The position numbers were made by a program, and so were the translations under genes. From an uncultured Clostridia bacterium (GTDB taxonomy: Bacteria > Bacillota > Clostridia > TANB77 > CAG-508): DNA of 64,000 nucleotides. The stretch covers positions 28,122-92,121 of the forward strand of contig CANQTQ010000001.1 in assembly GCA_947626765.1 (NCBI GenBank), given 5' to 3'. The notes beneath the pieces were generated by a model that saw only the letters and a program-made list of their open reading frames with translations, was not told the DNA's origin and made no database searches. Positions 17,731-20,580 of this stretch are shown here, piece by piece; positions within the stretch are counted from its first letter, which is position 1; each line of letters starts with the position of its first letter.

Positions 17731-20580
17731 TTATTAAATTTAAAAATAAATATAATTTTATATTTTTATTTTGTTCATATTTTATTTTATATTTTATATT
17801 TTTTATTTTTTATTTATTTTTATTATTTTAATTTTGAGATTTAAAATTTATAATTAAATTTTTTATAAATTATTTTTATTATTTATTTTTAATTATAAAA
17901 TAAAATAGTTAATGATAAAATTTAGTTTAGTTTGGTTTTAAAAAACTTTTCCATAAAATGTTATAGCATTTTATAATACTAAAAATATGTAACTATTTTG
18001 TAATGTAATTTTTTACCTTTTATAAACTGAATATTTGTCAATTTGTTTGCATAATTAGTAGATTAGATTTCATTTTCAAATTAGGAATATTACAAAACTT
18101 TTGTTTTGTAATATTGATATTGTCAATTAGTAATATATTTGTTTCTTCTTTATAAAGCTACACATTATTCTGCTAAATATTTGCTTTTTTATGTGAGTTT
18201 TATGTATACTTATGCTCGTTTTTCCATTAAAAACTTATTTTTTTAATTTTTTCACTATTCCGAAAGAGTTTAAGGTATTTTTTTACCCTATTTTGCAGCT
18301 TACTAATAGCATATAAAACTAAAAATATTTTTTCATAACATTTTTTTAAATTATAAAATTTAAGTGTTCAATTCAATATTTGTTTTTTTGTCAAATATAT
18401 ATTTATTTTTTTATCATCTATCTTTATAAAAAATTTTTTTGAAAATCACTTCAATTTTTTACTATTTTTTATAAGTTTAAATTTAGAAACAATAGCATTC
18501 ATGTTTTTAGTTTTAAAAAAACATTTTTCAAATTTCTCATGATATAGTTTGAATTTTTTATTAACTAATTTTAATAAAGATATTATCTAATTAATTTTCT
18601 ATATTATTGTTAAATTATATTTAAAATTTTTTTATCTTATTTTTTATTATAATTTTTAATTTATTTTTGATTTAATTTTTTTATTTATTTTTAATTTTTA
18701 TTTTCTTTTTTAATTTTATTTTTATTTTTTATTTCTAATTTTTATTTTTAATTTTTTTTATTTTTATTTCTATAATTAAAATTTTATTTTTAATTTTTAA
18801 ATTATAAAATTTGTAATTAAATTTTTTATTTAATTATTTTTTAATTTTAGTATTAATAATTTTTATTCAATTTTTATTTGTCTTTCATAATTATATTTTT
18901 TATAATTATAAAATTTCGTTTTACTATTTTAAAATTTTCTAGCTGAATTTTTTTAAAAAATATATGGTAAAATATTCCAAATATTTTATATTATAATAAT
19001 AATCATTTTATAACATCTTTTTATATAGATTTATTTTTATATCCTATATTATGTTGAAATTTTATTTGTCAAATAGTAATACTTTTTAGGCTTTTAAAAT
19101 CTAATCTTAAATTATTGAAATAATATTTTTTATTTTTAATTATTGTTATGTTATTATGTATTCTTTTAAACTTTTTTTAACTTTATTTCTAATTTTTCAT
19201 TTTTTGTTTATTCCGAAGTAATGAATGTCATTTTTTTATATTATTTACTGATATAATTGTGCTATATCCTGCTAAATTTTTTTATATACTTTTTGCTTAT
19301 AACTAACTTACTTTATAAATGAAAATATAATTCTTTGTCTTTTTGTAATATAAAATTAGTCTTTTATTAATACTACATTTATACATTATTCTTATATCCT
19401 ATTTTTGGTTCAATAGCATTGTTTAAAAACGAGTTTTACATAATATTTGATATATTATATTTTAGATTTCTTTATGCTGAAAAAAATTTGTTCTCTATAT
19501 ATTGTATATCATTAATTCTATAATTTATATTTTTATTTTTCAATTAATTTAAATTTTGTAAAAATTATATTTTTTAATTTAATAGTCTTATTTTTAATTT
19601 TTTTATTTTATTTTTTATTAATTAATTTTTATTTATATTTTTTATTTAAATCTTTATTTTTAATTTTTTATTTTATTTTCTATTTCTAATCTTTATTTTT
19701 AATTTTTTTTATTTTTATTTCTATAATTAAAATTTTATTTTTATTTTTTATTTTAATTATTCTTTATTTTATTTTTTTAATTATTTTTTTGTTTTTTAAT
19801 TTTATTTCTTCTATTTTAAATTTTATTAATTTTAATTTTTAATTATAATTTTATATTTTTATTTCTATCTTCAATTTACAAATAATTATAGTTTAAATTT
19901 TTGATTTTTGCTTTTCCATTTTTTTCCTTTATACTTTTTTTAAAATCTTTATCAGAAAAAATAATACTATAAACTTTTATTTCCATTATCTAATATCCTT
20001 AAAATAAAAGTGCAAGTAAGTATGAAATTTGGTTCAATTTTATCTTTTTAGTAAAATGTCAAATAGTCATTTTTTGTTGTTATCTTTTTTTCATTTATAT
20101 CTTTGCTGATTAGTTTTAATATTATTTTTATTTTATGTTTACTTATGTGTTTCTTTTAATTTTATATATTACTAACTTATAAACTACCTATTCCGATGCA
20201 TTTTATTGTACTATAATTTTTGATTTTTTAATTAAAATTATATTTAATTTCATATATAAAACTTCTATTCTGATTTCATTAACAATCGAATTTAATTAAA
20301 TTAGATATTGTTTATTTGTCTTTTTAGCATGTTCTTGTTTATATTATTATAGCAATTAGTCTTATACTACCTTTTTATTATTTTTAGTCTTTTTACTCTT
20401 TCTTGTTTTACATAACTAATATTATGTGATTTCTAAGATGTTTCATAACAATATAAAAAATTTTAATCTGTAAAAATTGCTTTTAAAAGTTTTTTATTTT
20501 TTTATATATATAATTTCATGTCTAAAAAATAAAAACACCTTAAAATTAATTTTAAGATGTAAAAATATAACATTATATAA
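17731..20580 (+). repeat. ORF-free, extremely AT-rich array of three diverged tandem units (~950-980 bp)
   Basis: - T-rich low-complexity blocks lie at about 17731-17905, 18590-18900 and 19530-19870.
- Each is followed by about 600-700 bp of more complex sequence.
- The more complex parts share a colinear module: TGTCAA(A/T)T, about 78 nt, TATGTWTACTTATG, about 45 nt, ATTCCGA.
- 18731-18792 and 19682-19743 are identical at 61 of 62 positions. Confidence 0.75.

Follow-up and report, generated by a model that had tools for sequence, protein, structure and literature searches.

A vertically inherited, non-coding array of four-box units beside parAB and near the replication origin in a genus of uncultured Clostridia

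The window considered here is a 64,000-nucleotide (nt) stretch of DNA (C1:28122-92121) from an uncultured Clostridia bacterium, whose metagenome-assembled genome (MAG) was obtained from a rabbit gut metagenome and comprises 1.48 Mb in 57 contigs, with 26.8% guanine plus cytosine (GC) and a rated completeness of 97%. Between the gene for a double activase and a pair of tRNA-Ser genes next to parB, this window contains an array of three head-to-tail units, A, B and C, each composed of a T-rich minisatellite and then a module of about 270 base pairs (bp) with four colinear sequence boxes. The array matches no known gene, RNA or mobile element. It is a vertically inherited, lineage-specific, non-coding array at one chromosomal address, and there is selection on the boxes as well as on their spacing. 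On the left the array is flanked by the convergent activase gene (13297-17655, plus strand), encoding a protein of 1452 amino acids with BcrAD_BadFG and DUF2229 domains according to Pfam, and by a hairpin 3' of this gene that consists of a perfect AT-rich stem and then a T run (17686-17727). On the right lie the terminator hairpin of the tRNA-Ser pair (20585-20617, minus strand), the genes for tRNA-Ser(gct) and tRNA-Ser(tga) themselves (20618-20830, minus strand), and parB and parA (21075-22770, minus strand), which are intact by Pfam analysis (ParB_N, HTH_ParB and ParB_C domains in the parB product). The first-pass annotation of this DNA had placed the array between two terminators, and both do fold, with -17.0 kcal/mol for the left and -10.3 kcal/mol for the right hairpin; the latter is conserved in the related genome G016. 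In the following, G000 denotes the present genome, other G-numbers denote members of its genus, and L-numbers denote loci, including those of other genera.

The stretch occupied by the array is free of genes. No open reading frame (ORF) of 40 or more codons with an ATG, GTG or TTG start is present between 17655 and 21075, which goes beyond the ORF-free interval of 17656-20617 noted earlier, and the longest stop-to-stop frame in the stretch is 61 codons. The T blocks are T5-6A minisatellites with a period of 6-7 bp and a GC content of 4-8%. On the plus strand, block A extends over 17731-17900 (about 6% GC), block B over 18600-18900, and block C over 19520-19880 (about 4% GC). Tandem Repeats Finder detects only short periods within these blocks. 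Blocks B and C share a 62-nt repeat (18731-18792 and 19682-19743) with exactly one base different, as had been reported. When ultra-AT blocks are defined by a GC content below 8% per 200 bp, they cover 17612-17988, 18504-18976 and 19450-19926, at intervals of about 950 bp, and just ten such blocks occur in the whole 1.48 Mb genome. The other ultra-AT blocks of the genome are different things, one lying inside a coding ORF and others being spacers in a region of type IV secretion genes. The coding case is outside the window, at C1:7812-9458, where a 548-amino-acid minus-strand ORF encloses the block at C1:8367-8684 (GC below 8%); its N-terminus has a P-loop-like GKNESGKST sequence and was judged SbcC-like by eye alone. 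Extreme AT content can therefore be coding in this genome. Within the window, two more blocks that are T-rich on the minus strand (46440-46740 and 47510-47690) occur in the interval 46304-47700 and do not carry the four boxes. They flank a small hydrophobic ORF that starts at 47477 behind a strong ribosome-binding site. The interval separates a DnaD/DnaB_2-type gene from an unknown gene, in a neighbourhood with VirD4- and VirB4-like genes.

The four boxes are all found on the plus strand, with the consensus sequences TGTCAAWTWGT (box 1), TTATGTWTWC (box 2), TATTCCGA (box 3) and TTGTYTTTTTG (box 4) in the window. In unit A, box 1 is TGTCAATTAGT (18121-18131), box 2 is TTATGTATAC (18200-18209), box 3 is TATTCCGA (18256-18263), 55 nt past box 2, and box 4 is TTGTTTTTTTGTCAA (18380-18394), 124 nt past box 3. 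Unit B has TGTCAAATAGT at 19067-19077 as box 1, TTATGTATTC at 19154-19163 as box 2, TATTCCGA at 19209-19216 as box 3, and TTGTCTTTTTGTAAT at 19335-19349 as box 4. Its box 2 lies 88 nt past box 1, where units A and C are about 10 bp shorter, and its box 3 lies 54 nt past box 2. The boxes of unit C are, in the same order, TGTCAAATAGT (20057-20067), TTATGTTTAC (20133-20142), TATTCCGA (20189-20196) and TTGTCTTTTTAGCAT (20316-20330). The arrangement as three colinear units of a T-rich block and a conserved module had been proposed in the first-pass annotation and is confirmed, and much strengthened by the comparison with other species described below. The unit-to-unit offsets of 953 and 980 bp that it gave hold on box 3, while box 1 gives 946 and 990 bp. 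Its motif positions are correct for TGTCAAWT (18121, 19067 and 20057), for the box 3 sites and for TATGTWTWC at 18201 and 20134, but the TATGTWTWC site placed at 19147 is actually at 19155, 8 nt further on.

This colinearity exceeds what is expected by chance. A composite motif made of boxes 1-3 has three matches in the 1.48 Mb genome, all in the array, and did not occur in 20,000 shuffles of the region. Taken singly, boxes 1, 2 and 3 are found 5, 3 and 3 times in the region against 0.17, 0.25 and 0.03 expected, and a reversed-pattern control gave no matches in 401 genomes. The similarity between units does not extend further. Outside the boxes and T blocks, composition-corrected Smith-Waterman scores between units A, B and C do not exceed those of local shuffles, and a BLAST-type self-comparison is swamped by composition, with about 60% identity on every diagonal. 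The pairwise comparison of units that had been recommended, applied to the modules, therefore showed nothing above shuffles within this genome, and it was the other species that supplied the decisive evidence. Because the modules are otherwise dissimilar, the periodicity rests on the boxes and on the cross-species comparison, not on overall unit identity. A homogeneous satellite or tandem repeat was rejected on the same ground, as modules A, B and C align no better than shuffles. Instead, A, B and C are paralogues that diverged long ago and have orthologues in other species.

The distribution of the array was examined with a sequence-only model of boxes 1-3 in 51 genomes of the genus, in line with the earlier recommendation to search the genome and its relatives for the module. 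The model detects one to four units in 16 of these genomes, with periods of 520-1300 bp, and the orientation of boxes and units is uniform in every species. In all inspected flanks (G000, G016, G059, G050, G051, G052, G054, G058 and G033) the array is located behind tRNA-Ser(gct) and parB, so that the tRNA-Ser pair is its right-hand neighbour in each of these species. In G009 the array and the tRNA/parB side are on separate contigs and the junction is inferred only. The convergent gene on the far side varies, being an activase gene in some species and a gene for a PMT_2-like membrane protein in others. Single weak extra matches to the model, one each in G016, G033, G044 and G059, count as putative only. 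The orthologous activase-to-tRNA-Ser gap of G016 contains three units, which have identities of 66-70% in alignments with A, B and C and carry the same boxes in the same order. The paralogues A, B and C predate the split between G000 and G016, and the conserved order of orthologous units indicates vertical descent. G009 has two A-type units, recent duplicates that are 80% alike and reach the contig end, and in G059 tRNA-Ser is followed immediately by one unit or more. A different content is found in G007 (L101, 1900-5400), where other, GC-richer genes occupy the locus. One of these encodes a 399-amino-acid protein that matches the N-terminal methylation (pilin-like) motif only weakly and below threshold, with an E value of 0.00078 and 19.4 bits where the cut-off is 21.2 bits. 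A leucine-rich-variant/HEAT repeat protein is also encoded there.

Beyond the genus the model found nothing comparable. In a scan of the family (151 genomes, 50 genera) only this genus scores with the model, and the strict pattern gave no matches outside the genus among 401 genomes of the order. Two loci of other genera have DNA of similar composition at the same address. In L022 (11850-15300) an ORF-free, very AT-rich and pyrimidine-skewed stretch of 3.3 kb follows parB and tRNA-Ser; it contains the box-4-like sequence TTGTTTTTTTGTCAATTTAC twice, 1488 bp apart, and a pair resembling boxes 2 and 3 near the tRNA. In L021 (12400-13923) ORF-free, ultra-AT, pyrimidine-skewed DNA runs to the contig end.

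Conservation across species is confined to the boxes and the distances between them. In 32 units from 15 species, the only islands with at least 85% conservation are the four boxes, with the consensus tTGTCAA.TtGT for box 1, ttTTATGTaTaC for box 2, tATTCCGAag for box 3 and TTGtctTTtTg.ca for box 4. Among 15 compared units the identity within boxes is 0.97, and the sequence between boxes 2 and 3 has an identity of 0.51 versus 0.45 for shuffles, so neutral decay of copies of a mobile or duplicated unit, the earlier suggestion, does not explain the boxes. In 15 of 17 units boxes 2 and 3 are spaced by 55 nt. Boxes 3 and 4 are spaced by 124-127 nt, again in 15 of 17 units, and by 115-116 nt in two units of G051. 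Boxes 1 and 2 are 77-81 nt apart in most units and 88-89 nt apart in three. With four boxes unchanged at fixed distances in at least 15 related species, the array is under selection.

The position of the array relative to other chromosomal landmarks is relevant for its possible function. Rightward of the array the minus-strand order is tRNA-Ser(gct), tRNA-Ser(tga), parB, parA, rsmG, mnmG, mnmE, jag, yidC and rnpA, followed on the plus strand by dnaA, dnaN and gyrB. DnaA boxes are clustered at 30231-30262 and 31770-31888, which puts a distance of about 9.5 kb between the replication origin (oriC) and the array's right edge. Further along the window, at 37097-41586, genes for VirB4-like, TraG P-loop and ParA-like proteins are located between gyrB and gyrA, which are normally an adjacent pair.

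We tentatively suggest, with a probability of roughly 0.35, that the array works as DNA, as a platform next to parAB and oriC on which several proteins assemble. In this mechanism the module would act as double-stranded DNA, with the four boxes as docking sites for at least two sequence-specific proteins that form one defined complex per unit. The poly(dA:dT)-type spacers, rigid and easily melted, would hold adjacent complexes apart, and the row of complexes could serve as an origin-proximal landmark for chromosome organisation, segregation or anchoring. Selection on the boxes and their spacing is established, whereas a function as DNA, the proteins that would bind and the role in the cell are our inference. 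By analogy with replication origins and recombination sites, conserved boxes at conserved distances with free sequence in between are the putative signature of a defined nucleoprotein assembly. An element for organisation or segregation near the origin would also agree with the repeated unit and with the location next to parAB and oriC. Support for the platform is indirect and comes from the invariant boxes, their fixed spacing and off-size units that deviate by about 10 bp, or one helical turn (88-89 versus about 79 nt, 115-116 versus about 125 nt). Among the candidate roles of the first-pass annotation, structural or organising DNA close to the origin is the best fit, but it is not proven.

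Several observations weigh against such a platform. The genome of G006, which is 99% complete, has tRNA-Ser joined directly to the activase terminator, with neither an array nor a match to the model, and the array is therefore dispensable there. The boxes are non-palindromic and mutually different. Since the T tracts have a period of 6-7 bp and show anticorrelation at 10-11 bp, no phased bend results, and phased A-tracts were rejected as an explanation for lack of 10.5-bp phasing. The helical-turn pattern of the off-size units derives from two or three independent insertion or deletion events only. Finally, the whole region is strand-asymmetric, with far more T than A and more C than G on the plus strand, a polarity equal to that of the minus-strand genes next to it. 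Such asymmetry is not called for by a role as DNA, but transcription could yield it; it is the strongest point in favour of transcription and keeps a reading as RNA alive.

Comparison with known protein-binding systems gives partial likeness in each case. Replication origins have clusters of DnaA boxes at fixed spacing beside an AT-rich unwinding element, and plasmid origins have iterons and an AT-rich region. The array resembles these in its invariant short boxes, strict distances and AT-rich repetitive block, and is located less than 10 kb from oriC. However, it lacks DnaA boxes, its four boxes are all different, and the unit is repeated one to four times. A search for DnaA boxes (TTATCCACA, at most one mismatch) found none between 12890 and 30231. 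An array of Spo0A boxes was also rejected. The core of the Spo0A box is TGTCGAA, and the G5A change reduces affinity about 10-fold (PMC3485338). Box 1 has TGTCAA, the G5A form, in 30 of 32 units, a count in which a few units could differ under the 85% threshold, and TGTCGAA in none.

Bacterial centromeres are the other obvious comparison. They comprise chromosomal parS, the near-universal bacterial centromere, and the repeat arrays of plasmid parC/parS sites. Like these, the array is an origin-proximal array of sites directly beside parAB, in a genus that lacks canonical parS. The palindrome TGTTNCACGTGNAACA has no match with up to three mismatches in the window and none with up to one mismatch in the G000 genome; across the 51 genus genomes, nine have a match versus 14 for the reversed control. 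No recurrent GC-containing palindrome was found either. Because parAB is intact and canonical parS does not rise above the control level, the array is a candidate centromere. In contrast to known centromeres it has no 16-bp palindrome and its boxes are asymmetric, and G006 has parAB but no array; since that genome is without both parS and the array, the link between array and centromere is weakened. That the four-box array replaced parS in the genus, and perhaps in related genera with AT-rich arrays at the same spot, is a doubtful proposal. Within this proposal, and with the same doubt, the array could be a loading or anchoring site for the partition or condensation machinery, built from multi-protein units and poly(dA:dT) spacers.

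The main rival of the platform is a set of tandem non-coding RNA genes, one per unit, whose transcripts would have little secondary structure and in which the boxes would be protein- or RNA-recognition segments. We regard this as a possible explanation, although a tentative one. The RNA could be purine-rich and A-rich, transcribed from the minus strand in the sense of tRNA-Ser and parB, or U-rich and transcribed from the plus strand. The uniform orientation of units and boxes in every species agrees with RNA genes, and the composition skew has the sign and size expected of a minus-strand transcription unit. Tandem families of small RNA genes do exist, such as LhrC1-5 of Listeria and Qrr of Vibrio, and share with the array same-sense copies in a row and short conserved segments. 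The units of the array are, however, 5-10 times longer and lack a conserved hairpin and terminator and any clearly conserved promoter. Promoter-like matches are as numerous as in shuffles and cluster at one position only, where box 1 reads TTGACA on the minus strand and 11-13 of 26 units have a -10-like hexamer 16-18 nt further on. This pairing is perfect in some units (TTGACA-18-TATAAT in G051), but its rate is close to that expected by chance for AT-rich DNA and it is absent from all three units of the window. The tRNA-Ser promoter itself (20831-20900, minus strand) is of the form CTATTGACAATAT-18-TATTAT with an extended -10 element, and the context of its -35 element has TTGACAATAT in common with the minus-strand reading of box 1 in unit A, which may be chance or a trace of common origin.

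A folded RNA, as the first-pass annotation had considered, finds no support. RNAalifold on eight units gave 0 consensus pairs on the plus strand and 0 on the minus strand, by which a structured RNA was rejected. The units share no conserved helix and contain no intrinsic terminator, and the small hairpins seen at boxes 3 and 4 do not recur from unit to unit. In the Rfam search only tRNAs reach the gathering score. At E values up to 5, Rfam found nothing in the array within 17600-20700 and gave one extra weak match, Plastid-psbl-rps4 (E 0.0031), over the tRNA-Ser gene. For the unstructured RNA that remains, the nucleotide-exact spacing of the boxes would be unexplained.

It is unlikely that the array is functionless satellite DNA, tolerated in a gap between convergent terminators, with boxes that are accidents of slow decay or gene conversion. 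The absence of the array from G006 without obvious consequence would agree with this, as would the variation in copy number (one to four units) and period between species and the slippage-type character of the T blocks. Some prokaryotes do carry non-coding satellites or long tandem repeats, although these are rare in bacteria (Subirana and Messeguer 2019, PMC6749651). Like those satellites, the array is head-to-tail, non-coding and very AT-rich, with a copy number that is variable between relatives. Unlike them, its units are old diverged paralogues that have not been homogenised, with only the four boxes and their spacing kept, and it occupies one syntenic address across the genus. Neutral decay should erode both boxes and spacing, whereas the near-identity of the boxes and the fixed spacing persist over 15 species, and the separation of G000 from G016 came later than the divergence of paralogues A, B and C.

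A very unlikely option is that the units are, or were, tandem plus-strand genes for small hydrophobic peptides, comparable to type I toxins or small membrane proteins, and mostly broken by now. Translation would start at the ATG of box 2 (M-Y-T...), and box 3 would encode Y-S-E 18 codons on. The ATG is invariant, and the 55-nt spacing sets TAT TCC GAA of box 3 in frame with it. In 9 of 19 units this frame is open through box 3 and gives similar peptides, such as MYT-x15-YSEGFVEFF, and ORFs of 71 codons (G059) and 126 codons (G058) begin at the box 2 ATG. Yet frames +1 and +2 are equally open (6 and 10 of 19 units), as purine-poor DNA predicts, and the open frame differs by unit type. A stop occurs at codon 15 or 16 in seven units and earlier in several, whereas box 3 and its flanks are kept in all; boxes 1 and 4 are outside any such ORF, no consistent ribosome-binding site is present, and there is no protein-level match between species. 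Long direct repeats of type I toxin-antitoxin systems are known from the ldr and ibs/sib loci of E. coli. The array is similar to these in its tandem units of 0.5-1 kb and in a short hydrophobic frame from a conserved ATG, but its frame is not preferentially open, has frequent stops and no ribosome-binding site, and is not conserved at the protein level. A protein-coding gene or recent pseudogene was rejected for the same reasons. The minus strand has no consistent ORF across units. Recoding by CGG +1 (CGGN=G) was tested because the minus-strand reading of box 3, TCGGAAT, contains a CGG_A site, and it gave no ORF in the array units. Pfam and PHROG searches found nothing at E values up to 0.001; the best match was Protoglobin, with an E value of 0.0016 and under the curated cut-off. 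Lys-rich pieces of minus-strand ORFs in G009 look protein-like and were dismissed, as their best Pfam or PHROG match, at an E value of 0.0016, is not convincing and they have no intact relative in the 51 genomes. A 106-codon open frame in G059 was likewise dismissed, with no relative in the genus genomes.

Equally improbable is an origin from integrative elements at the 3' end of tRNA-Ser(gct), left as att-flanked remains similar to a cis-mobilizable element (CIME), in which the boxes would be recombinase or accessory sites of an attP-like region of about 270 bp. In favour of this are the position of the array immediately next to a tRNA gene, the variation of the locus between species, with no array in G006 and other genes in G007, the breaks of most genus assemblies at tRNA-Ser(gct), and a module size and multiple sites that resemble an intasome region. 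However, inspection of the units revealed no copy of the tRNA 3' end or its terminator at their borders, and Pfam detects no integrase domain in the flanks. The module has no other confirmed address, and the units keep their order between species, which points to vertical descent. An integrated element or CIME was rejected on these grounds.

That the array is an assembly artefact of collapsed or chimeric low-complexity reads can be put aside as next to negligible: the genome is metagenome-assembled, per-run contigs of the source sample end inside the 62-nt repeat common to blocks B and C and no contig appeared over units B and C in per-run mapping, but the contigs cover 17345-18770 with no mismatch and with unit A as deep as its flanks, all four runs contain 98% of the 31-mers sampled from 18900-20580, low-complexity filtering best explains the missing contigs, and independent MAGs of other species have orthologous units in the same order.

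Beyond promoters, known RNAs, origins and parS sites, very little of the non-coding DNA in bacterial chromosomes is known to be conserved. Here, a kilobase-scale, gene-free array is maintained in a reduced genome of 1.5 Mb, at one address by the partition genes and the origin, and in many species purifying selection acts on its four boxes and the distances between them. A practical consequence concerns genome recovery. In 14 of 17 genus assemblies (G001-G018) the contig ends no more than about 1.1 kb past parB, and in several of them the last base of tRNA-Ser(gct) is also the contig end. Short-read assemblies are routinely broken here by the array or by strain variation, and the array accounts for most genus assemblies breaking just past parB and tRNA-Ser. 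If the units are an RNA gene family, they would represent a new kind of long, unstructured bacterial RNA. If instead the array is a protein-binding platform, it could explain how ParAB functions in a genus without recognisable parS, and it would constitute an unknown layer of chromosome organisation in a large group of uncultured gut Clostridia.

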